Positions 5,780-62,315 of a stretch of DNA of 64,000 nt are shown piece by piece. The stretch covers positions 260 to 64,259 of the forward strand of contig JAIXKK010000145.1 in the NCBI GenBank assembly GCA_026954325.1. Direction: 5' to 3'. Origin of the DNA: Bryobacterales bacterium (GTDB lineage Bacteria; Acidobacteriota; Terriglobia; Bryobacterales; Bryobacteraceae). A program made the position numbers and the translations under genes. Every line of letters begins with the position of its first letter. The stretch's first letter is position 1. The notes beneath the pieces are model-generated. The model did not search any database. It was not told the origin of the DNA and saw only the letters and a program-made list of their open reading frames with translations.

Positions 5780-7081
5780 ATGAAAATTACCGCCCTTCAT
5801 CTGCATCCCATCGCGGTGGCGGATCCGCCGTTGCGCAGTTCCTACGGGTTGCATGCGCCCTACGCCATCCGGACTATCGTGGAGATCGAGACCGACGAAG
5901 GAATTCGTGGGATAGCGGAGACTTACGGCGGTGAGCAGCCGCTCAGCGCGCTACGGGCGGCGGAGCCGAAGCTGATCGGGCGGGATGTTTTTCAGTTAAC
6001 GCGGCTGTGGATGGAGTTCGAGGCGCTGGCGGCGGAGGGAGACCGGAGCCAGACATGGATGGTCCCGGGAGAAAATCCCATGGACCAGCATGCGCGGACG
6101 TTTGCCGCCATCGAGTTTGCCTGTCTGGATGCCATCGGGAAAGCTCTGAACCAGCCGGTATGCGATCTGCTGGGCGGGCGGGCGCGCGACGAGGTTGCCT
6201 TTTCCGCCTACCTGTTCTACAAGCACGCGGGCGGCGGCGGATTGGGGGACGATGAGCGGGAGGACGAATACGGGGAGGGTCTGACTCCCGAGGCGATGGT
6301 GCGGCAGGCGAAGGATTTCATCGCCAGGTACGGCTTCCGGGAGATCAAGTTGAAGGGCGGCGTGCTCGACCCCGAAGTGGAGATTGAGACGATCCGGGCG
6401 CTGCGGCGGGAGTTTGGGCCGGCGGCGCCGCTGCGGATTGATCCAAACTGCGCCTGGAGCGTCGATACATCCGTGAAGGTGGGCGAGGCGCTGGCGGAGG
6501 AGCTTTCCAACGGCGGTTATCTCGAGGACCCGTGCGCGACGATTGAGGGGATGGGCGAGGTGCGCCGGCGGCTGCTGGCGCGGGGAATTGACACCCCGCA
6601 GGCGAGCAATGTCGCGGTGACGGCCTTTCAGCACATTCCGGTGGCGCGGAAGCACGATGCGGTGCAGATTGTGTTGTCCGATCCCCACTATTGGGGTGGA
6701 ATGCGGGCGCAACAGCAATTGGACCACTTCTGCCACGTGTTCGGGATGGGGGTGTCGATGCATTCGAACAACCACCTGGGGGTGAGCCTGATGGCCATGA
6801 CGCACGCCGCGGCGGCATGTCCGCATCTGACGTACGCCTGCGATACTCACTATCCGTGGCAGACGGCGCGCGACGAGGTGGTGGCCGGAGGACGCATCCC
6901 GTTTGTGAACGGATGCGTGCGGATTCCTTCGAAGCCGGGGTTAGGCGTGGAATTGGATTACGACCAGTTGGCGCGGCTGAAGGAGCGCTACGAGGCGCTG
7001 CCGTACCGCAAGCGGGATGATGAGGCGGAGATGCGGAAGCGGGTGGACGCGAACTGGAAGCGGGTTCTGCCGCGGTGGTAG
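5780..7081 (+). CDS. enolase-superfamily dehydratase, glucarate dehydratase (GudD)-like
   Basis: Near-collinear with E. coli GudD as I recall it: KLKGGVL...LRIDPNCAWS...YLEDPC...LSDPHYWGG...HSNNHLGVSLMAMTHAAAA...PGLGVELD. Confidence 0.85.
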   Translation: MKITALHLHPIAVADPPLRSSYGLHAPYAIRTIVEIETDEGIRGIAETYGGEQPLSALRAAEPKLIGRDVFQLTRLWMEFEALAAEGDRSQTWMVPGENPMDQHARTFAAIEFACLDAIGKALNQPVCDLLGGRARDEVAFSAYLFYKHAGGGGLGDDEREDEYGEGLTPEAMVRQAKDFIARYGFREIKLKGGVLDPEVEIETIRALRREFGPAAPLRIDPNCAWSVDTSVKVGEALAEELSNGGYLEDPCATIEGMGEVRRRLLARGIDTPQASNVAVTAFQHIPVARKHDAVQIVLSDPHYWGGMRAQQQLDHFCHVFGMGVSMHSNNHLGVSLMAMTHAAAACPHLTYACDTHYPWQTARDEVVAGGRIPFVNGCVRIPSKPGLGVELDYDQLARLKERYEALPYRKRDDEAEMRKRVDANWKRVLPRW

Positions 7082-9988: not shown

Positions 9989-10697
9989 GGCTTTCACTAC
10001 ACTGACGCACGGATGCCGAACGTCTCCATTTATATTGGCGACAGCCATTGTTTTCTTCCCCGCGGCTCCCTTCTTCCTGTTCATGCACGGCAAAGACACT
10101 GTCATCCCGAAGGGTACGGAGATCACTGCCTACGTCAATGGGGAGATCACGTTGGAGCGCCTTCATTTCGAGGGCAGGTAGCAAATCGAGGGCGAATTCC
10201 CGTTCCGCGAACGGAAAGATTAATGCGTGATACAAGATCGACGGTTTGGGGGCGGTACGAGTCTCAGGATGAGCTTCCGCGGCTGAAAGGGTGGCGCTGC
10301 GAACCTGCGTTCGTCACCGTTGAGTTCGATGGAGACCTCTACAGCGCCTGTTTCGGACTGCTGACGCAGAGCCGCCGCAAAAACCGGATTGGCATGAACG
10401 AAGAGGAGCGTCGAGAATACGAGTGCTTGGCCGGAAAGCGCTCCCATAACGGGTCTGTACCTCCGAATGTCTATGGTGAGATCGAACCTTGAAGTGCCGG
10501 CGTGCCTTAGCGACAGCCCATTCATCGCAGCCCCCCTGTTTTGAAGCAAGTCAACGCCTTCCTTGGCGATGATTGCAACCATCACAAGCGCTGCAACAGG
10601 ATCGGCCCACCCGTTGGTTTTAGGATACTGAACTGGTCGCTCACGAGCGTTCACATTCCCATGTATGACCACCGCCTTGCTATGCTGAACTCGTAGT

Positions 10698-10989
10698 GGC
10701 CCGATGGCGAAATCGGCAGACGCAACGGACTTGTCGATTGAGCACCAGTGGAGCGATCTGCTGGCGAATGTTGTCAAACTCGGCGAACGCTTAACAGATC
10801 ACGCTGATGCCAACGCCGAACCAAGCCCGGTGACGGGAAGGTGTAGAGACTAGACGGCAACCATCTCCCGGAGATGAAGGCATAGTCCAGACCACGAACA
10901 GCGGATTAGCTGGCGGCGAAAGCCGAAGTGGGAAGAAAATCCGTTTCACCGCAAGGTGAGTGTCGGTTCAAGTCCGACTCGGGCCACCA
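10698..10989 (+). tRNA. tRNA-Leu(UAA), interrupted by a group I intron; exons 10698-10732 and 10936-10989
   Basis: The joined exons give an 89-nt class II tRNA. Acceptor GGCCCGA/UCGGGCC pairs 7/7 and anticodon stem ACGGA/UCCGU pairs 5/5. The loop is CUUAAAA (anticodon UAA). The variable arm is CACC-GCAA-GGUG and the T arm is GUCGG-UUCAAGU-CCGAC. Discriminator A and CCA are encoded. The 5' half closely resembles E. coli tRNA-Leu(UAA). Confidence 0.88.
10733..10935 (+). ncRNA. group I intron (IC3-like, 203 nt, no ORF) in the tRNA-Leu anticodon loop
   Basis: The intron starts after exon U34 and ends in G (omega-G). A GAG guide lies inside AUUGAGC near the 5' end. Core blocks UGUCAAACUCGGCGAA, GCCAACGCCGAACCAAGC and GAAGGUGUAGAGACUAGACGGCA nearly match the Azoarcus tRNA-Ile and cyanobacterial tRNA-Leu introns as I recall them. 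Confidence 0.82.
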
Positions 10990-11123
10990 CTACCCCACAG
11001 CAATTTGCGGCTGCTGTGATGAAAACGGCGCTTGTTAAAATGCTGGGACATAAAATGCTGGGACACTGGCGCGCGTGTCCGAGTGACCGGGAAGGCGCAT
11101 TCCTGATAGTATTCTCCAACCGC

Positions 11124-12207
11124 ATGAAGAAACTATTGATGCTGTCCGCGCTATATATCGCGCTGGGGTTGGCCCAACGCCCGCCCGCGTACCCGCTGAT
11201 CACGCACGACCCTTACTTCAGCATCTGGTCCACGACTGATGAGTTGAACGGCGGCCCCACGCGACATTGGACTGGCGCGCCGCGGGAAACCGGCTCGTTG
11301 ATCCGCATTGACGGCGCCACCTGCCGGCTCATGGGAAGTGACCTGCCGCGGCGGCTGGTGGAACGAACCGAGCCGCTGCGGCAGGTTTCGGCCCAGGTGC
11401 TGTGATCTGCGCATCGACTGGGGATATCCGTACGTCACGGCGCCGCCGGTTCTGGAGTCTCGCAGGTTGCGGCGGAGAGAGAGGAGACAAGAGCGGCTTT
11501 TGTCGCCAGCGGCGGGCTGCCCGCATCGGACGCATTGGATCCGGAGGCGCCCTCCCGCTTCCGGGTTCCGGCGCTTGCCTATGCATTCGACCTCGGCGAG
11601 GTGACCGCGGCGCCGGCAAGCCGGACGCTGATTGTCGCCTATGACGATGTGTACTCCATCGAATGCTTCCAGCGGCGGCTGCGGCCGTATTGGCGGCGCA
11701 AGGGCGCGACGGCGGAGGACATGTTGCGCGCCGCGCTGCGCGATGAGGCTTCGCTCACCGAACGGTGCGCGCGATTTGGCAAGGAACTGATGACGGACTT
11801 GCGCCAAGCCGGGGGAGCGGACTATGACGCTGGCCTACCGCCAGGCAATCGCGGCGCACAAACTGGTGGCCGATATCGACGGAACCCCTCATCTTTTCCA
11901 AGGAGAATTTCAGCAACGGGTGCATCGGCGCCGTGGACGTCACCTATCCGAGCGCGCCCTGTTTCTGCTGATGAATCCGGAATTGCTGAAAGGCATGATC
12001 CGGCCGGTTCTGGACTATGCAAGCCTGGAGCGCTGGCGTTTTCCGTTCGCGCCACACGACCTCGGCACGTATCCGCAAGCGGACGGGCAGGTCTACGGAG
12101 GCGGGGAGCGCAACGAAGACCGGCAGATGCCCGTGGAGGAATCCGGCAACATGCTGATTCTGACCGCGGATGTGGACGAAGTGGCTTGGGCAAAAGGAAT
12201 AGGATGA
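11124..12207 (+). pseudogene. glutaminase-A-like (DUF4964/DUF5127/DUF4965 family) gene, multiply frameshifted and C-terminally truncated
   Basis: Family-typical segments are spread over three frames. These are MKKLLMLSALYIALGLAQRPPAYPLITHDPYFSIWS...HWTG...IRIDG, then LIVAYDDVYSIECFQRRLRPYWRRKGATAEDML, then YRQAIAAHKLVADIDGTPHLF / KENFSNGCIGAVDVTYPSAP / LFLLMNPELLKG...FPFAPHDLGTYPQADGQVYGG...QMPVEESGNMLIL. The C-terminal domain is missing. Confidence 0.7.
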
Positions 12208-12282
12208 GCCGTCTTGTGACTTCGTGTTCCACTGGCGACAGGGATTCCACAAAATCGGCTATTCTGTGGGCGGACAAAGATT

Positions 12283-13551
12283 GTGTGGACGGGCTTCTAC
12301 GAATTGCTGCCGCCGGAAGGCGGTAAGATCCTGCTGGTCCTGTTCCTGTCGTTCCTTACCGGCTTGGAGCGGGAAGAACACCGGGTCGAGAAGCCGCGAT
12401 CTTTCTTTGGCGGGGTGCGGACATTCCCGCTCATCGGGCTTATCGGATACACCGTGGCTCTTCTCTCCGCGGGCCAGGCGATTCCCGTAGCCGTGGGGCT
12501 GGCAATTGTCGCGGCCTTCCTCCTGATGTCCTACCGGAACAAACTGGCCACGGGACGGCCGGGCATTACGTCAGAGATGTCCGCCCTCGCCACCTACCTG
12601 GTGGGAGCGTTGGTGTATCGCGAGCAATTGTGGATCGCCACCACGCTGACCGTCGCCAGCGTGTTGCTGCTGGAGTTGAAGGCGGCGCTCCAGGGTTTGA
12701 CCAGGCGCATCCCCGGGGAAGAGATTCTCACGTTCACCAAGTTTCTGCTTCTCACTGCGGTCATCTTGCCGGTGCTGCCCAATCAGGCATTCGGCCCGTT
12801 CGAGATCAACCCGTACAAGTCGTGGCTGGTGGTGGTGGCGGTCAGTTCCGTATCCTATGCGAGCTACCTGATTCAGAAGCTGGCCAAACAGCAGGGCGGC
12901 GTCATCCTGGCGTCGCTGCTGGGCGGGGCCTATTCTTCGATGGTGACCACTATCGTGATGGCCAAGCGCGCGGCGCGTGAAGAGCGCCCCCACCTGTTTG
13001 CCGGGGGAATCCTCATCGCTTCCGGCGTCATGTATCTGCGCCTGGCGGGATTGGTGACCTTGTTCAACCGGCAACTGATCACGAGTCTGGGAGGGCCGTT
13101 CCTGGCGCTGGCGGCGATTGGTGTGCTGGGAGGCTGGATATGGACGCGGCTTCCCGATCTCAAATCCGGTGTTGTGGCAAGAGAGTTCACTCCGAAAAAC
13201 CCTCTCGAACTGGGCGCGGCGTTTCTATTCAGCATGCTGTTCCTTGCGATGCTCATCGCCACTCATCTGGTGGTGACCTATTTTGGGAAGACAGGGGTGT
13301 ATCTTCTTGCCGGGTTGATGGGCATGACGGACGTGGACCCGTTCATCATGGGGATAACCGAATCGGCGGGCCGCGGCACGAGCCTGGGTGTAGCCTCCAC
13401 AGCCATTCTTATCGCCGCCGCAAGCAACAACGTGATGAAGGGGGTCTATGCGTTCATGCTGTGCGATCGCAAGACGGGCGTGCAGAGCATTGCGCTGCTC
13501 GCCGCGCTGGCAGTGGCGGGCCTCGCCCCCTTGCTGTGGTTGGCGAGATGA
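12283..13551 (+). CDS. MgtC/SapB-family membrane protein with DUF4010-like C-terminal half
   Basis: N-terminal LLVLFLSFLTGLEREEH (MgtC signature) and a polytopic hydrophobic profile throughout. GTG start. Confidence 0.75.
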   Translation: MWTGFYELLPPEGGKILLVLFLSFLTGLEREEHRVEKPRSFFGGVRTFPLIGLIGYTVALLSAGQAIPVAVGLAIVAAFLLMSYRNKLATGRPGITSEMSALATYLVGALVYREQLWIATTLTVASVLLLELKAALQGLTRRIPGEEILTFTKFLLLTAVILPVLPNQAFGPFEINPYKSWLVVVAVSSVSYASYLIQKLAKQQGGVILASLLGGAYSSMVTTIVMAKRAAREERPHLFAGGILIASGVMYLRLAGLVTLFNRQLITSLGGPFLALAAIGVLGGWIWTRLPDLKSGVVAREFTPKNPLELGAAFLFSMLFLAMLIATHLVVTYFGKTGVYLLAGLMGMTDVDPFIMGITESAGRGTSLGVASTAILIAAASNNVMKGVYAFMLCDRKTGVQSIALLAALAVAGLAPLLWLAR

Positions 13552-15063: not shown

Positions 15064-17172
15064 TCACCGCCCGAGCGTCTTTGCCAGATACTCGACAATC
15101 ACATTCACCTCGGCATCAGATGCCTGCGCGCCGCGCGCCACCATGTTCTGCACCACCGTCCTCCATTCCTGAGCATTCATACGCTGGCTGGTCACCACTT
15201 CGAGGGAATGGCAGCCCATGCCGCAGGTCTTGTTCACCAGGTCCTTGGCGCCTCCAGGGGGCAGCGTCACAGGGGCATATGCGCCGACTTGCGGCATGCC
15301 TCGCCGGGCGGCGGCGGCCGCGGCCACGGCTTTCGACACCGAAACAGGAAGCGGCTTGCGAGGAACGTCCGGCAGGGCAAAGGCCACCAGCGTGTTGCTG
15401 GTGCCCCCGCCGAGAAAGCCGCCTCCTCCCGCCGCCATCAACGCCACGTACTGCCGGCCGTCGCGGCCCATGTAGGTGAGGGGGCTCGTGTGGCCGCTGG
15501 CCTCGAGCTTCGTCTCCCAGAGCAGTTTGCCTGTCTTCGATGCAAAGGCGTGGAAGCGGGAATCATTCGTTGCTGCGATGAAGACCACGCCGCCCGCGGT
15601 GGCGATGCTCCCACCGAGGCTCAGTGTGCCGGTATCGTGGACGCCGATCGCCTCGAGAGCGTCGATCCTTCCGAGTGGGGACCGCCAGGCGATGTCGCCC
15701 GTGGCGAGGTTTACCGCAACCATCTCTCCGAACGGCGGATTCTGGCAGGGAATATGGGTCTCGCGATTCCAGAAGCGCGCATAAGGACCGTAGGCCGAAG
15801 TGCGCACGTACCCGTCGCCGCGCTTTTCCATGTGTCCCCACTGGGCCACGTTCATCACGTTCACGAACAACATCCCCAGTTCCGGATCCACGGACACTCC
15901 GCCCCAGTTTCCGCCGCCGAGGGTGCTGGGAAAGAAAAGCGCATTGCCCTCGAACGGGAGCGGCGTGTAGGGTTCGCTAATCTTCATGTGATTTGTTTCA
16001 AACAATTCCTTGCAAAATCGTGCATGCTCGGGCGAGCGGTCGTACATCTCTTCGATACGGAACGTGTTCTTCCCGATCGACGGCGGCTTCACGGGAAACG
16101 GCTGGGTCTTCGAGGTGACTTCACCCGGAATCGACGTTTGTGGAACCTTGCGTTCTTCCATCCCGTACACGGGCTCTCCCGTAACCCGATCAAAGACAAA
16201 CAGCAGGCCCATCTTGGTGATCTGCGCCACTGCCGGAATGACTCGCCCGCCGCGGCGGATATCAAACAACGCGGGCGGCGCCGCAAGGTCATAGTCCCAG
16301 ATGTCGTGATGCACCAGTTGCTGATGCCATTTCTTCGCGCCGGTCCGCGCGTCCAGGGCGACCAGCGAGTTCCCGTAAAGGTTATCGCCCACGCGGTCAG
16401 CCCCATAGAAATCAGAGGTGGGCGAACCAAGCGGGGCGTAGACAATCCCGCGCTTGACATCCACCGTGAAGAAGCCCCAGACGTTGGTTCCGGAGCGGTT
16501 CTTCCAGGCGTCTTTGGGCCACGTATCCGCACCCGGTTCGCCCGGATGCGGCACGGTGTGGAAGGTCCAGAGCAGTTTCCCGGTTTTCGCATCCCAGCCG
16601 CGAATATCGCCATACGTCCCTGCCGAGGGAGCGCCTTCGCCGTTGCTGCTTCCCGTGATGACGACATCGCCAAACACGGCCGGCGGTGATTGGAGGGCGT
16701 AGCGGCCGTCCTTCAAACCGTCCAGGACGCCCTTCTTCAAGTCCACGCGGCCCTCGTCCCCGAATCCGGGCGCCGGCTTGCCGGTGGTGACATCCAGCGC
16801 TAGCAGCATGGGGCCGTTGCCCGCAAACACGCGCGGGTGCAGCCCCTTGGCGCCCGGCCAGTAGGCCAGGCCGCGCAAAGCCATCGGCGAGGCGTCGTAT
16901 TTCCACAGGAGTTCGCCGGTCTCCGGTACCAGCGCGTAGACTCCGTCGGGCGCGGTGAAATACATCACGCCGCCGATCAGAATGGGGACGGCTTCCGATC
17001 CGGGTTTGCCCGTACGGAACGTCCAGGCCGGCTTCAGGCGTTCGACGTTGCCGGAATGGATCTGGCGCAAAGGGGAATAGCGCATGGCGCCGGGATCGTT
17101 TCCAAAGGACGGCCATTCGGACTGGGCGAACAGTGCCACCGAGCATAGAATGAGAGCAAGAGATCGAATCAC
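15064..17172 (-). CDS. PQQ-dependent beta-propeller dehydrogenase (glucose/quinate-type) with C-terminal cytochrome-c-like domain
   Basis: Signal peptide, then WPSFGNDPGAMRYSPLRQI...LKPAWTF and repeated propeller W-motifs. The C-terminal about 60 aa carry CGMGCH (CX3CH) followed by a WRTVVQNMVARGA...YLAKTL helix pattern. Confidence 0.82.
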   Translation of the reverse strand: MIRSLALILCSVALFAQSEWPSFGNDPGAMRYSPLRQIHSGNVERLKPAWTFRTGKPGSEAVPILIGGVMYFTAPDGVYALVPETGELLWKYDASPMALRGLAYWPGAKGLHPRVFAGNGPMLLALDVTTGKPAPGFGDEGRVDLKKGVLDGLKDGRYALQSPPAVFGDVVITGSSNGEGAPSAGTYGDIRGWDAKTGKLLWTFHTVPHPGEPGADTWPKDAWKNRSGTNVWGFFTVDVKRGIVYAPLGSPTSDFYGADRVGDNLYGNSLVALDARTGAKKWHQQLVHHDIWDYDLAAPPALFDIRRGGRVIPAVAQITKMGLLFVFDRVTGEPVYGMEERKVPQTSIPGEVTSKTQPFPVKPPSIGKNTFRIEEMYDRSPEHARFCKELFETNHMKISEPYTPLPFEGNALFFPSTLGGGNWGGVSVDPELGMLFVNVMNVAQWGHMEKRGDGYVRTSAYGPYARFWNRETHIPCQNPPFGEMVAVNLATGDIAWRSPLGRIDALEAIGVHDTGTLSLGGSIATAGGVVFIAATNDSRFHAFASKTGKLLWETKLEASGHTSPLTYMGRDGRQYVALMAAGGGGFLGGGTSNTLVAFALPDVPRKPLPVSVSKAVAAAAAARRGMPQVGAYAPVTLPPGGAKDLVNKTCGMGCHSLEVVTSQRMNAQEWRTVVQNMVARGAQASDAEVNVIVEYLAKTLGR

Positions 17173-40649: not shown

Positions 40650-42020
40650 ATGGCTATCGACTCGCGCCGGGAAGCGCTGCTCCGGCACACGTTCATCGAC
40701 TTCATGCAGACTGCGGAATTCCTCCGCCATCCGCTCATTTTCGAGCGCGCCGAGGGTCTTCATTATTGGGACATCGAGGGGCGCCGGTACTTCGACGCCA
40801 TTGGAGGCATTTTCGTGGCGTGTCTCGGCCACGGGCATCCGCGTGTCCTAGAGGCGCTGCGCGAGCAGGCCGGGCGGATGGCGTTCGCCCCCCCGCTGCA
40901 CGGGATATCGGACATCACGCTCGATTTTATCGAACGGCTCGGCGGCGTTGCACCCGGCAATCTGAAGTTCGTCAAGCCGTTCAGCGGCGGCTCGGAATCG
41001 ACGGAAGCGGCGATGAAGTTCGCGCGGCAGTATTTCAAGCAGACGGGCCGGCCGGGAAAGTATAAGTTCATCAGCCGGTATCACGGCTATCACGGCGGCA
41101 CGGGAGCGGCGATGGCGGCGAGCGGCACGGGGCCGCGCAAGACGAAGTTCGAGCCGCACATGGGCGGATTCCTGAAAGTGTTTCCTCCGAACCATTACCG
41201 GCGCTATTTTTCCGATTGGGACGAGTGCAACCGCTTTGCGGCGCGGGCGCTGGAAGACGTGATCATTCACGAGGATCCGGATACGGTGGCGGGGTTCCTG
41301 GTGGAGCCGGTGGGGAATACGGGCGGCATCATCACGCCGACGGTGGAATATTTCCGGATGATCCGCGAGATCTGCGATCGCCATGACGTGATGCTGATCT
41401 TCGATGAGGTGATCACGGGATTCGGCAAGACGGGTTCGATGTTCGCCGCGCAGACGCTTGGGGTGACGCCCGACATCATCTGCTGCGGGAAGGGACTCTC
41501 GAACGGGGTGTTTCCGATTGGGGCGATGATCGCTCGCGAGGACATGGCGGATGCGTTTTACGGCTCCGCGGAACAGAACCTGCAATTCGCGCACGGCCAC
41601 ACGTTCGCGGGCAATCCGCTGGCGGCGGCGGTGGGGATGGCGGTGATCGGGACCATTGTGGAAGAGCAACTGGACCTGCGCGCGCGCCGCATGGGCGATT
41701 ATCTGGCGTCGCGGCTGGAGCGGCTGAAGGAATACGGCGTGGTTCGGGAGGTGCGAGGGCGCGGGATCCTGCGGGGGGTGGAACTGGTGAAGGATACGAA
41801 CTCGATGGCGCCGTATCCTGAATTGGGGACTGCGCTGAAGCGCATCGCGGTGGAACAGGGCGTCATCCTTCGCGTGGATCCTTCCTGGTTTGCCGTGTCG
41901 CCGGCGCTGGTGGCTTCACAAGCCGATATCGACGAGATGTGCGATTTGATTGAGCAGTGCCTGGCGCAAGCCCTCGATGCCGTGCAGGTTCGGGCTGTCT
42001 CTTCCCGAGGCGGGGAATGA
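40650..42020 (+). CDS. class III (omega) aminotransferase, PLP-dependent
   Basis: YWDIEGRRYFDAIGGIFVACLGHGHP, GGSESTEAAMKFAR, LIFDEVITGFGKTGSMFA and CCGKGLSNG (PLP Lys). Confidence 0.9.
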   Translation: MAIDSRREALLRHTFIDFMQTAEFLRHPLIFERAEGLHYWDIEGRRYFDAIGGIFVACLGHGHPRVLEALREQAGRMAFAPPLHGISDITLDFIERLGGVAPGNLKFVKPFSGGSESTEAAMKFARQYFKQTGRPGKYKFISRYHGYHGGTGAAMAASGTGPRKTKFEPHMGGFLKVFPPNHYRRYFSDWDECNRFAARALEDVIIHEDPDTVAGFLVEPVGNTGGIITPTVEYFRMIREICDRHDVMLIFDEVITGFGKTGSMFAAQTLGVTPDIICCGKGLSNGVFPIGAMIAREDMADAFYGSAEQNLQFAHGHTFAGNPLAAAVGMAVIGTIVEEQLDLRARRMGDYLASRLERLKEYGVVREVRGRGILRGVELVKDTNSMAPYPELGTALKRIAVEQGVILRVDPSWFAVSPALVASQADIDEMCDLIEQCLAQALDAVQVRAVSSRGGE

Positions 42021-43783
42021 GGGTATTGGCTCTTTTTCTATCTCTGGCGGTTCAATTGCTTCCGCGGCAACTGTTCCGGGAGCGATGCGCGTCCTGCCAT
42101 GGGGAAGAGGCTCGGGGCAGCGCCAAGGGTCCGGGGCTTGCGATGAATCCGCGGGTGGCGAGGCAATCCGTGGAACAACTGCGGGCGTACCTGGAGCGCG
42201 GTAACGCGGGCGCCGGGATGCCCTCGTTTTCCGATCTGCCGCCGGCGGACCTGCTCACGCTCGCCAGGTACTTGCGCCGAATCAATGTGGAAACCATCGC
42301 CGGCCCGGTGACGTCCCCGGTGGCCGCCCGCAAGATCACGCCGCGCCCGCCGCGGGCGGGGGACTGGATCACTTACAACGGGGATCTGTCCGGTAACCGG
42401 TACAGTCCACTGAAGCAGATCACGGCCGCGAACGTCTCTTCGCTGAAACTGAAGTGGGTGTTTCCGATGGCGCATTTCGGGTTGGAGGTGACCCCGCTGG
42501 CGGCCGATGGGGTGCTGTATGTGACGGGGCCCAACCAGGTGTTCGCGCTCGATGCGCTCACGGGGAGTTCACTGTGGGAGTATTCGCGCCCGCTGAGTCC
42601 GGGAATGCTGGGCGATGCGAAACTCGGCACGAACCGCGGCGTTGCCCTGTTGCGCGACAAGGTGTTCTTCGTCACTGACAACGCCCATCTGCTGGCGCTC
42701 GAGCGCGCCACGGGCAGGCTGCTTTGGGAAACCGCGATGGCTCCTGCTTCCGGCGAGCGGCATCACTACGGGGGAACGATGGCTCCGCTGATCGTCCACG
42801 ATACGGTGATCGCGGGCGTGGCGGGCGCTGACGAAGGCATCCGGGGATTCATTGCGGCCTTTCACGCGGACTCGGGTGCGCTGGCCTGGCGGCGCTGGAC
42901 CGTGCCGCGAAGCGGGGAGCCCGGCATCGAAAGCTGGCAAGGTAAGGAGCCGGTGACGGGAGGCGGGTCCACCTGGCTTACGGGATCGTACGAGGCGGCG
43001 ACAGACACCCTTTACTGGGCTACGGGCAATCCCTGGCCCGACGGGGACGACCGGGAGCGTCCCGGCGATAATCTTTACACCAACTGCGTTCTCGCGCTGA
43101 ATGCGAGGACGGGGGACCTGAAATGGCACTATCAGTTCACGCCGCACGACGTGAAGGATCGCGACGCCACCGAGCCTAACGTGCTGGTGGACACGGTCTA
43201 TCGCGGCAAGCCCTCGAAGCTTCTGCTGCACGCCGATCGCAACGGCTTCTTCTATGTGATCGAGCGCGACAGCGGCAAGCTGCTTCTGGCCAGGCCGTTT
43301 CTGCGGCGGGTGGATTGGGCGGAGAGGATCGGCGCCGATGGGAGGCCGGTAGTGAAGGATCCGCGCGGCTGCCCGTCGGACGCCGCCAACTGGGATGCGG
43401 CGGCGTTTTCGCCCCTCACGCGCCTGTACTATGTGCTCGCGCTCGAGGAGTGCACCGGCAAGCCCACGGGCTATCCGGAGCAGACCGGGCAGCGTTTCCT
43501 GCGGGCTCTGGACATCGAGACGGGGAATATCGCGTGGGAGATTCCGCAACCGGGCCCGGCGCGCGCCAAGACGTGGTCCGGCGTGCTGGCCACGGCCGGC
43601 GGACTCGTGTTCTACGGCCGGCCGAATGGGGGCTTTGCGGCCGTGGACCAGCGCAATGGGAAGCCGCTGTGGGAATTTCCGGCGAATGTTCGGATGAAGG
43701 CTTCGCCCATGACCTTCACTTACGGCGGCAGGCAGTATATCGCGGTGGCCGCGGGGCCGAATATTCTTTGCTTCGGGCTTTGA
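42017..43783 (+). CDS. PQQ-dependent alcohol-dehydrogenase-like propeller with N-terminal cytochrome c domain
   Basis: ATGA overlap with the aminotransferase. CASCHG heme motif plus MPSF (Met ligand region). Then WITYNGDLSGNRYSPLKQI and repeated propeller motifs. Confidence 0.82.
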   Translation: MRVLALFLSLAVQLLPRQLFRERCASCHGEEARGSAKGPGLAMNPRVARQSVEQLRAYLERGNAGAGMPSFSDLPPADLLTLARYLRRINVETIAGPVTSPVAARKITPRPPRAGDWITYNGDLSGNRYSPLKQITAANVSSLKLKWVFPMAHFGLEVTPLAADGVLYVTGPNQVFALDALTGSSLWEYSRPLSPGMLGDAKLGTNRGVALLRDKVFFVTDNAHLLALERATGRLLWETAMAPASGERHHYGGTMAPLIVHDTVIAGVAGADEGIRGFIAAFHADSGALAWRRWTVPRSGEPGIESWQGKEPVTGGGSTWLTGSYEAATDTLYWATGNPWPDGDDRERPGDNLYTNCVLALNARTGDLKWHYQFTPHDVKDRDATEPNVLVDTVYRGKPSKLLLHADRNGFFYVIERDSGKLLLARPFLRRVDWAERIGADGRPVVKDPRGCPSDAANWDAAAFSPLTRLYYVLALEECTGKPTGYPEQTGQRFLRALDIETGNIAWEIPQPGPARAKTWSGVLATAGGLVFYGRPNGGFAAVDQRNGKPLWEFPANVRMKASPMTFTYGGRQYIAVAAGPNILCFGL

Positions 43784-54095: not shown

Positions 54096-55910
54096 ATGGA
54101 CCCAGCCTTCATCCGTAACTTTTCCATCATTGCCCACATTGATCACGGCAAGTCGACTCTTGCCGATCGTCTACTTGAAGCCACGGCGGCGTTGAGCGAA
54201 CGCGAGATGATGGAGCAGGTTCTCGATTCGATGGATCTGGAACGCGAGCGCGGCATCACGATCAAGGCGCACGCCGTGAGACTGAATTATCGCGCCGAGG
54301 ACGGCGTTCTCTACCAGCTCAACCTCATTGACACTCCCGGCCACGTCGATTTCAGCTACGAGGTTTCGCGCAGCCTGCAGGCGTGCGAAGGCGCTCTGCT
54401 GGTGGTGGACGCCTCGCAGGGCGTGGAAGCCCAGACGCTTGCCAATACGTACCTGGCGCTGCACCACAATCTGGAGATCATCCCGGTGATCAACAAGATT
54501 GACCTGCCATCGGCCGAGCCGGACCGCATCAAGGAGCAGATCGAGCAGGTGATCGGGCTCGATTCCTCGGGGGCGATCCTGGCGAGCGCCAAGCAGGGCG
54601 CCGGCATTCACGAGCTGCTGGAAGCGATCGTGCACCTGGTGCCTCAGCCCAAGGGCGATCCGGATGCGCCGCTGCGCGCCCTGATCTTCGATTCCTGGTT
54701 TGATCCCTACCGCGGCGTGATCATCCTTTTCCGCGTGATGGATGGCCGGATCCGCGTGGGGCAGCGGATTCGACTGATGTCCGCGGGGAAGGTCAGCGAA
54801 GTGGAGGCGCTCGGCTACCAGTCGCCTAAGCCTGTTCCGTTGCAGGAACTCTCCGCGGGCGAGGTCGGGTATGTGTTCGCCAATATCAAGACGGTTTCCG
54901 ACGCGCGCATCGGGGATACGATCACGGATGCCGAGAATCCCGCCGCCGAGGCGCTCCCCGGATTCGAGGAGATCAAGCCGATGGTGTTCGCGGGGCTCTA
55001 TCCGGTGGAGTCGCACGAGCATGGCCTGCTGCGCGATGCGCTCGAAAAGCTTCGTCTCAACGACAGCGCGTTCAACTTCGAGCCGGAAAACTCGGCGGCG
55101 CTGGGGTTCGGGTTCCGCTGCGGGTTTCTAGGCCTGCTGCATTTGGAGATTGTGCAGGAGCGGCTGGAGCGCGAGTTCAATATCGACCTTATCACCACGG
55201 CTCCGGGCGTCCGCTACCGGGTGACGAAGCTCGACGGCGAGGTGGTGGAGGTGGACAACCCCACGCGCTGGCCCGTGCAGGCCGAGATCAGGCAGATTGA
55301 AGAACCCATTATCGACGCCACCGTGATTACACGCGAGGAATATCTGGGGGAGATCCTGAAGCTGCTTGAAGAAAAGCGGGGGGAGCAGAAGAAATTCGAG
55401 TACATCGGCACGGGCCGCGTAATGCTGAATTACGAGCTTCCGCTGAATGAAATCGTGCTTGACTTCTATGACCGGTTGAAATCCGCCTCGCGCGGCTACG
55501 CCTCTCTCGACTACCACCTGGCGGGCTACCGCGTGTCGCCGATGGTGAAACTGGACGTGCTGGTGGCGGGCGACCCCGTGGACGCGCTGTCGATGATCGT
55601 GCACCGCGACTTCGCGTATGACCGCGGCAAGGCGCTGATTGAACGGCTGCGCAAGCTGATTCCCCGGCAGATGTTCGAAGTGGCGCTGCAGGCGGCGATC
55701 GGGAACAAGATCGTGGCGCGGGAAAACATTCCCGCGATTCGCAAGAACGTGCTCGCCAAGTGTTACGGCGGCGACATTACGCGCAAGAAGAAGCTGCTGG
55801 AAAAACAGAAGGAAGGAAAGCGGCGGATGAAGCGCGTGGGCCGGGTGGACATTCCACAGGAGGCGTTCCTGGCGGTGCTTCAGGTGACGAAGAAGGAATC
55901 CGAGGATTAG
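54096..55910 (+). CDS. lepA: elongation factor 4 (LepA)
   Basis: [38 protein letters not shown] and the LepA-specific C-terminus [25 protein letters not shown]. Confidence 0.96.
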
Positions 55911-61424: not shown

Positions 61425-62315
61425 TCAGGCGCCGCGTTGGAAGAAGACGATATCCGCGGCCCAAAACACAAAGAATAGCATGCTGACCCAGCCATTCACG
61501 GTGAAGAAGGCGGCGTTGACGCGCGAAAGATCGTTCGGTTTGACAAGCCCGTGCTCGTAGAGGAGGAGAGCGGCGACGATGGCGGCGCCCAGCCAGCTTG
61601 CGGCGCCGAGGCGGAAACCCACCACGAGCGCGGCGAGGCAGAACAGCATGGTTGCGTGGAAGAACCGCGACACCCGGAGCGCTCCCGCGATGCCGAAACG
61701 GCGGGGAATGCTGAACAGGCCGGATTGGCGGTCGAACTCGTAATCCTGACAGGAATAGATGATGTCGAAGCCCGCGGTCCAGAGGGTGACGGCGGCGGTG
61801 AGCCAGAGGATTCTCGCGTCCAGGGACCCGCGGATGGCGATCCAGGCGGCGGCGGGGGCGATGCCGAGCGAGAACCCAAGCACGACATGCGAGAGGGAAG
61901 TGAAGCGCTTGGTGAAAGAATAGAAGAAGATGACGCCGAGCGCGAGCGGAGCCAGTTTCAGGCACAGCGGATTGAGCGCGGCTGCCGCCGCGAAGAATGC
62001 CGCCGAGGAGACGGCGGTGAAGCCCCAGGTGAACTTGCGGCTGAGCAGCCCGGCTGGTATGTGGCGCGCTTTCGTGCGCGGATTGCGCGCGTCCGCTTCG
62101 GCGTCCAGCAGGCGGTTGAACGCCATCGCCGCCGAGCGCGCCCCGACCATGGCGAGCACAATCCAGGCGAGTTTGAGCGGGAGTCCGGCGAGCCGGTATC
62201 CATCCTCGCGCCAGGCGAGCAGGGCGCCGGTGAGCGCGAAAGGCAGGGCGAAAATGGAGTGCTCGAATTTGATCATGTCGAGCGTCAGGCGGACCCGGTG
62301 GAGGAAAGAGGACAT
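61425..62315 (-). CDS. UbiA-family aromatic prenyltransferase (MqnP/UbiA-like)
   Basis: NRLLDAEADARNPRTKARHIPAG (first Asp-rich motif), a second motif region YSCQDYEFD, and 8-9 TM helices. Confidence 0.85.
   Translation of the reverse strand: MSSFLHRVRLTLDMIKFEHSIFALPFALTGALLAWREDGYRLAGLPLKLAWIVLAMVGARSAAMAFNRLLDAEADARNPRTKARHIPAGLLSRKFTWGFTAVSSAAFFAAAAALNPLCLKLAPLALGVIFFYSFTKRFTSLSHVVLGFSLGIAPAAAWIAIRGSLDARILWLTAAVTLWTAGFDIIYSCQDYEFDRQSGLFSIPRRFGIAGALRVSRFFHATMLFCLAALVVGFRLGAASWLGAAIVAALLLYEHGLVKPNDLSRVNAAFFTVNGWVSMLFFVFWAADIVFFQRGA

Follow-up and report, generated by a model that had tools for sequence, protein, structure and literature searches.

The stretch of DNA analysed here (hereafter the window) covers 64 kb of a contig from a Bryobacterales bacterium, and at positions 10698–10989 of its plus strand it very probably carries a class II leucine transfer RNA (tRNA) gene, tRNA-Leu(UAA), split at the U34/A35 junction by an IC3-type group I intron of 203 nt that contains no open reading frame (ORF). 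We are likewise highly confident that the intron is genuine and that it is maintained by selection within a functional tRNA gene. ARAGORN, run with introns allowed, reported a tRNA-Leu(taa) of 89 nt with a 203-nt intron inserted at linear position 35/36, with gactt on the 5′ side and aaaat on the 3′ side of the insertion. The 35-nt 5′ exon (10698–10732) ends in GGACUU and contains the acceptor 5′ strand, the D arm, the 5′ strand of the anticodon stem and the nucleotides C32, U33 and U34. The 54-nt 3′ exon (10936–10989) starts with AAAAUCCGU and contains A35 and A36, the 3′ strand of the anticodon stem, a variable arm of the form CACC-GCAA-GGUG, the T arm, the acceptor 3′ strand, A73 and, at 10987–10989, an encoded CCA. 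Splicing in silico gave a full class II cloverleaf in ARAGORN, with 7/7 acceptor pairs, 5/5 anticodon-stem pairs, discriminator A73 and CCA. The intron (10733–10935) begins with G, ends with G10935 and has stop codons in all six frames. A first-pass annotation of the window had proposed such a gene; its exon and intron coordinates and the lengths 35/203/54 were correct to the base, its description of the tRNA (including the GCAA loop of the variable arm) agreed with the ARAGORN cloverleaf, and the U34/A35 insertion, the U(−1).G pair and GAG guide in P1, the terminal G and the lack of an ORF were all found as described.

To establish the family to which this intron belongs, we scanned species-representative genomes with the pattern AGACGCNNNNGACTY N{98,128} GGTGTAGAGA, which links the D arm and anticodon stem of tRNA-Leu to the core block adjacent to P7, and which was deliberately biased away from cyanobacteria; at least 120 matches were obtained. 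The intron mode of ARAGORN proved unreliable on these homologous loci, where it often misplaced the intron and called Ser, Phe or "Stop", and therefore the splice sites were mapped via the anticodon-stem complement. Ninety-eight genes, with the window and one plasmid copy included, were cleanly mapped, namely 87 tRNA-Leu(UAA) genes with U at position −1, ten tRNA-Leu(CAA) genes with C at −1 and one that was not re-typed as a tRNA. A further 25 loci failed the strict mapping rule. Twelve of these were read by eye, and 11 turned out to be genuine tRNA-Leu genes with the same split site, mostly with a mismatched 27:43 pair, the twelfth being a truncated copy; several of the remaining failures were cut by contig ends. 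The introns of the 98 genes ranged from 203 to 267 nt, that of the window being the shortest. A profile built from the 97 homologous introns with the window left out, searched using nhmmer, gave a single match in the 64 kb, at 10728–10938, aligned end to end with 110 bits and an E-value of 2.6e-33.

Structure was assessed by explicit pair counting. The MAFFT alignment of the 98 sequences was scored against the window-derived P1–P9 structure, with P7 treated as a pseudoknot, and 92.4% of the cells held standard pairs, compared with 31–47% when the 3′ partners were slid by 1–3 columns. Double-sided changes were present in 36 of the 53 pairs, and none of 500 shuffles reached any of the observed values. 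P1 (10730–10742), in which exon CUU and intron G1 (10730–10733) pair with UGAG (10739–10742), was 100% paired across the 98 homologues; the GAG guide at 10740–10742 faces the exon CUU, and the U10732.G10740 wobble marks the 5′ splice site. This −1 pair was U.G in 72 homologues and C-G in ten, and the terminal G10935 (omega G), directly before the 3′ splice site, occupies an invariant column. P2 (10745–10764) is formed by CCAGUGGA and UCUGCUGG, is capped by GCGA in loop L2 (10753–10756) and shows compensatory changes in close relatives. The 5′ strand of P3, GUUGUC (10770–10775), pairs with GGCAAC (10856–10861), and the latter strand, supported by covariation, crosses P7 to give the core pseudoknot; P3 was 99.5% paired, with double-sided changes in 5/6 pairs. 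P4 (10780–10819), which pairs UCGGCG (10780–10785) with CGCCGA (10814–10819) and was also 99.5% paired, encloses a reduced P5 (10788–10811) consisting of GC/GC, an internal loop UUAA/AU and CAG/CUG, which came from the minimum-free-energy (MFE) fold only and is invariant in relatives. P6/P6a (10821–10841; CC..CCCG-GUGA-CGGG..GG) was 100% and 95.7% paired, with a G-C to A-U swap in relatives. P7 pairs GACUA (10848–10852) with UAGUC (10883–10887) and was 100% paired, with double-sided changes in 3/5 pairs and with the variants GACUA/UAGUC, GAGCA/UGCUC, GAGUG/CACUC, GACUG/CAGUC and GACUU/AAGUC among the homologues; its 3′ strand follows J8/7 (AAGGCA), is supported by covariation and is identical to the Azoarcus seed sequence. 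P8 (10862–10876; CAUCUC-CCG-GAGAUG) is unusually short, lacks a CCUAA...AUGG receptor-like motif and was 86% paired. In the P9 domain (10892–10931), CCAC/GUGG encloses P9a (CAGC/GCUG) and P9b (CGGC-GAAA-GCCG, with the GAAA cap L9b at 10918–10921), and the three helices were 96.7%, 89.7% and 99.5% paired, again with compensatory changes; overall, P4, P6, P9, P9a and P9b were 90–100% paired across the 98. The MFE fold of the single sequence recovered P2, P3, P4, P6, P8 and P9. The IC3 traits found were a P2, a simple P5 (no P5abc) and J3/4, J6/7, P7 and J8/7 segments homologous in sequence to those of Azoarcus, and the three core blocks that the first-pass annotation had quoted as Azoarcus-like were present and near-identical to the Azoarcus seed.

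The closest relatives were obtained from metagenomes. With the 30-nt end of the window's 5′ exon as the query, 15 contigs were recovered, ten of which, from soil and peat metagenomes, carried the same tRNA with introns of 204–209 nt that were 80–93% identical to that of the window; in one further contig the gene was cut by the contig end. The acceptor stem is GCCCCGA/UCGGGGC in the relatives and GGCCCGA/UCGGGCC in the window, which is a compensatory swap of the 2:71 pair. Within this subfamily the core (P3, P4, P7, J6/7 and J8/7) was invariant, the substitutions fell in loops L1, L5, L6, L8 and L9a or were compensatory in P2 and P6, and 97.1% of the alignment cells were paired compared with 25–46% for slid controls. 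An invariant core combined with loop and compensatory substitutions is the mark of purifying selection acting on ribozyme and tRNA alike, and argues against a decaying pseudogene. Contigs L123, L130, L131 and L135, from other organisms, held an uninterrupted tRNA-Leu(UAA) that has the 30-nt 5′-exon end of the window and no encoded CCA; they would serve as natural intron-less counterparts for comparison. In two other Bryobacterales (L031 and L057) the tRNA-Leu(UAA) was 83% and the intron 65% identical to those of the window, so that several lineages of intron-split tRNA-Leu(UAA) coexist in Bryobacterales.

The same split gene was by no means confined to this order. Counted from record titles, the matches listed (at least 120) included approximately 79 from Alphaproteobacteria, two from Betaproteobacteria, approximately 11 from Gammaproteobacteria, 13 from Acidobacteriota, two from Planctomycetota and one each from Bacteroidota, Binatia and Bdellovibrionota, so that the same gene-plus-intron arrangement was present in at least six phyla and more than 100 species-representative genomes. 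Vepritskiy and colleagues are said to have described, in 2002, a tRNA-Leu(UAA) intron in a gamma-proteobacterium. According to Hausner et al. 2014 (PMC3984707), tRNA and rRNA genes are the predominant location of group I introns in bacteria. Williams 2020 (bioRxiv 10.1101/2020.01.27.920355) counts 5,292 intron-split tRNA genes of 21 tRNA/site types in 80,413 bacterial genomes, places Leu.3Ug (CUU/intron/AAAA) among four classical types, lists 72 Leu.3Cg introns, all from Proteobacteria, and cites GISSD (a database of group I intron sequences and structures) as placing all bacterial tRNA introns in IC3. The view of the first-pass annotation that such introns occur only sporadically outside cyanobacteria is contradicted both by this census and by the six or more phyla found in a single scan. 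Intron-split tRNA-Leu in non-cyanobacterial bacteria is widespread and already catalogued as Leu.3Ug, of which the window holds a further member. This broad host range is compatible with a U34/A35 tRNA-Leu intron that has long been resident in several phyla rather than being a cyanobacterial speciality.

Comparison with known systems placed the window intron more precisely. With the Leu.3Ug class of Anabaena and Nostoc it shares the tRNA, the site, the U(−1).G in P1, the terminal G, the IC3 P1–P9 organization and the lack of an ORF, whereas it differs in its acidobacterial host and, at 203 nt, is shorter than the 250-nt Anabaena intron (PMC2729099); furthermore, the block adjacent to P7 reads GUGUAGAGACUA in the window, as in proteobacterial seeds, but GUGCAGAGACUA in the one cyanobacterial seed compared. 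The intron of Azoarcus sp. BH72 pre-tRNA-Ile(CAU) (IC3, ~205 nt, seed Aol6.Ile2.5Ug) is nearly the same size and shares a near-verbatim core (GUC AAA(U/C)UCGGCGAA, CAACGCCGA(G/A)CCAAG, GAAGGUGUAGAGACUAGACGGCA and GAAGGCAUAGUCCAG). However, it resides in another tRNA, is inserted after anticodon-loop position 5, has a GAAA in L2 and a P8 with CCUAAG...UAUGG where the window has GCGA and a plain P8, and has a single hairpin in place of the three-way junction of the P9 domain. Leu.3Cg introns of proteobacterial tRNA-Leu(CAA) genes use the same site and have a nearly identical P9 tail (CCAGACCACGAAC...GGCGGCGAAAGCCGAAGUGGGAAG), but the anticodon is CAA, the splice-site pair is C-G and P7 is GAGCA/UGCUC in nine of the ten recovered here, compared with U.G and GACUA/UAGUC in the window. 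Over aligned positions, the similarity of the window intron to seed introns was about the same (75–82%) whether these came from Leu, Arg, Ile, fMet, Lys, Thr or Ser tRNAs; one of the lowest values, 75%, was that for the Leu seed of cyanobacteria, the proteobacterial Arg, Ile, Lys and Thr introns scoring 77–82%. Similarity therefore gives no evidence for a cyanobacterial origin of the window intron.

Three other explanations of the locus were weighed against that of a functional, selected intron. The intron may be an inactive relic whose decay has disabled the gene, leaving UUA and UUG to be decoded by another tRNA-Leu gene. A number of observations do weigh in this direction or against the preferred reading: default ARAGORN (no introns) found no tRNA in the window and Rfam at its gathering threshold reported nothing there; at a permissive threshold on 10600–11100 (501 nt), RF00028 (Intron_gpI) matched 10723–10905 over model positions 1–253 with 40.3 bits (E = 6.4e-9), below the Rfam gathering cut-off of 50; a simple scan detected neither a sigma-70-consensus promoter nor an intrinsic terminator at the locus; the thermodynamic z-score of the MFE fold, −2.42, is modest; P5 has only 2+3 bp, is without covariation support and is the least supported helix; the outermost potential pair of P4 is C.A; and the analysis covered a 64-kb window, so that a second intact tRNA-Leu(UAA) elsewhere in the genome is possible. 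The reduced P8 and the uninterrupted tRNA-Leu(UAA) genes with the same 30-nt 5′ half in the four metagenome contigs named above can be added to these points. Nevertheless, the core helices and joining segments are intact and were invariant in nine relatives at 80–93% identity, the substitutions, whether in the intron or in the acceptor stem of the tRNA, avoid the core or compensate, and the reduced P8 and the GCGA loop are common to the whole subfamily and thus not private lesions. The silence of the default tools is a matter of sensitivity, not of absence. The gathering cut-off is an operational rather than a biological criterion, and Williams 2020 states that none of the 12 Rfam seed sequences is bacterial and that thresholds of 18–20 bits are needed. 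Both signals whose absence the first-pass annotation had regarded as fatal, a match to RF00028 and a P3/P7 core (here 99.5% and 100% paired), were found. A decayed intron is thus quite improbable.

An intron, or a whole split gene, recently acquired from a cyanobacterium or a plastid would account for the insertion site and the tRNA species, which are those of the classical intron. It is, however, difficult to reconcile with the 75% similarity to the cyanobacterial Leu seed compared with 77–82% to proteobacterial Arg, Ile, Lys and Thr introns, with more than 100 non-cyanobacterial species having the same arrangement (13 Acidobacteriota among the matches listed), or with a distinct subfamily that has diversified to 80–93% identity in soil and peat metagenomes, and we consider such an acquisition very improbable. 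Active homing among tRNA-Leu alleles is given an equally slim chance. In its favour, the window and its relatives have no flanking genes in common, the conserved part being the gene and ~25 nt upstream, and its tRNA and intron are no more than 83% and 65% identical to the counterparts in the other Bryobacterales. On the other hand, 203 nt with stops in six frames leave no room for a homing endonuclease, no integrase or endonuclease gene was found nearby, intron divergence tracks exon divergence in the subfamily, and loss of synteny is expected at the given sequence distance. With no room for an endonuclease gene, the earlier proposal that the intron is not actively homing is reasonable; as to the accompanying choice between vertical retention and ancient transfer, ~200 nt are too short to decide it. 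Taken together, these results favour a genuine intron retained by selection in a working tRNA-Leu(UAA) gene.

Judged from its homologues in Anabaena tRNA-Leu and Azoarcus tRNA-Ile, the intron would be removed by the usual two-step transesterification initiated by guanosine. The precursor would be transcribed as one RNA and the intron would fold into P1–P9. The guide UGAG would pair with exon CUU and G1 and thereby present the U(−1).G wobble, while P7 (GACUA/UAGUC) together with J8/7 and J6/7, the latter two identical to those of Azoarcus, would form the guanosine site, which by homology is held by P7. An exogenous guanosine bound in P7 would attack the 5′ splice site, G10935 would take the same site as omega G, and the freed 3′-OH of U34 would attack the 3′ splice site, so that ligation of U34 to A35 would create the UAA anticodon. 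The window gene is presumed to be transcribed, to encode a catalytically active intron and to yield a tRNA that is aminoacylated.

The lineage is peculiar in L2 and P8. All 97 other homologues have GAAA in L2, compared with GCGA in the window, and in 88 of the 97 P8 is 23–46 nt long and opens with (C/U)CUA(A/C), of the same family as the GAAA-receptor motif CCUAAG...UAUGG described for Azoarcus. The window and eight aligned relatives, in contrast, all have GCGA in L2 and a 15-nt P8 without the receptor motif. The combination of a GAAA L2 with an 11-nt-receptor-like P8 motif, a clamp that is typical of IC3 introns but not defining, is therefore absent from the window intron, and the L2–P8 contact appears to have been replaced or lost in its lineage. 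Under rules attributed to Costa and Michel, a GNGA loop docking on C-U:A-G helical steps would reportedly fit. It is possible, although we put this forward tentatively and with less than even confidence, that the Bryobacterales subfamily (203–209 nt) is a naturally minimised IC3 ribozyme in which GCGA docks on a bare 6-bp P8 at its tandem C-U:A-G steps, or in which the clamp has been dispensed with. If this is true and splicing is efficient, the subfamily would provide a compact new ribozyme for model studies and a case of tertiary contacts being swapped in nature.

Some members of the wider family deserve separate mention. The ten Leu.3Cg-type genes, with the intron after C34, were found at loci L007, L012, L026, L028, L074, L092, L097, L098, L102 and L120, and the hosts of these split tRNA-Leu(CAA) genes are Bordetella tumbae, Achromobacter, Steroidobacteraceae, an unclassified gammaproteobacterium, an unclassified proteobacterium and an acidobacterial metagenome-assembled genome (MAG). 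In a Terriglobales MAG (L016, ~5994–6390) the split tRNA-Leu(UAA) breaks off immediately after the T loop (…GGTTCAAGTCCCTTTTGGAACC…), without the 3′ strand of the acceptor stem, which suggests a truncation or an insertion at the 3′ end of the tRNA. Contig L008 contains, at 6137–6265 on the minus strand, a second, truncated copy in which a 5′ exon identical to the type found on plasmid pCTX-M3 and the start of the intron are followed by unrelated sequence.

The identity of the host was examined using LepA (54096–55910), which was 100% identical to a protein named "MAG: Bryobacterales bacterium", the next matches (99–86% identity) being almost all from Bryobacterales, Bryobacteraceae or Solibacter. 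This shows that the host is an acidobacterium, and that the first-pass annotation was right to see a non-cyanobacterial genome. Upstream of the tRNA gene are a sugar-acid dehydratase, a GFO/IDH/MocA oxidoreductase and an MFS transporter, and downstream are DUF4964/DUF5127 gene fragments, MgtC/DUF4010, an alpha-L-fucosidase and a PQQ-dependent dehydrogenase. The gene annotation of the window contained no integrase or endonuclease gene near the tRNA gene, and a genomic island at the tRNA was considered and rejected, since neither integrase nor phage-like genes lie downstream. A megablast search of 20 kb of the window against plasmids returned no match. The minus-strand ORF at 10220–10777, which overlaps the tRNA gene, had no family match, and the DUF4964 match starts well downstream of the tRNA, so that the ORFs called over the tRNA are spurious, as had been supposed. 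Directly 3′ of the tRNA, at 10956–12326 on the plus strand, two separate ORFs hold a DUF4964 domain and, of DUF5127, no more than the C-terminal third, apparently the remains of a glutaminase-A-like glycoside-hydrolase gene that is broken or truncated. Between the tRNA and the DUF4964 ORF is a tandem direct repeat, AAAATGCTGGGACA, of two copies with a period of 15 (11037–11065), which could be a regulator-binding site. There are two PQQ-dehydrogenase-like genes in the window, at 15064–17172 on the minus strand and at 41957–43783 on the plus strand; the latter matched the NCBIfam family "acido-empty-quinoprotein group A" best, at 435 bits (below the 650 cut-off), which fits an acidobacterial host.

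A split tRNA-Leu(UAA) was also observed on resistance plasmids of enterobacteria. In pCTX-M3 (NC_004464.2 ~61823–62119; L001 3994–4290) an intact tRNA-Leu(UAA) carries at U34/A35 a group I intron of 213 nt, which matched RF00028 with 36.8 bits. It lies in an unannotated gap beside a tmrB-like AAA ATPase and aac(3)-IId, between IS26 and ISCfr1. The gene and site are those of the window and the introns are ~69% identical, but the plasmid intron is longer and, unlike that of the window, has GAAA in L2 and a receptor-type P8. Approximately 1,260 PLSDB plasmids match the plasmid split gene, with ~70% identity to the window, and at ≥99% identity it was present in 636 of 5,426 complete E. coli genomes (589 places on plasmids and 82 on chromosomes); among the E. 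coli matches listed, no annotated feature underlay it. The plasmid intron is 95% identical to chromosomal copies in the alphaproteobacteria Enterovirga aerilata and a Bradyrhizobiaceae MAG, a hint that an alphaproteobacterium was the source of the aac(3)-II module. The literature searched contained no mention of tmrB and a group I intron together.

The main value of the finding is a correction of annotation. Standard settings miss the gene; the MAG would therefore look as if it had no tRNA-Leu(UAA), and spurious ORFs may be called over the locus. In ~12% of complete E. coli genomes, too, an intron-split tRNA-Leu goes unannotated through the same blind spot. With the window, an already large catalogue gains a lineage from the Acidobacteriota and a structurally compact variant, and the general picture of bacterial tRNA introns is unchanged.

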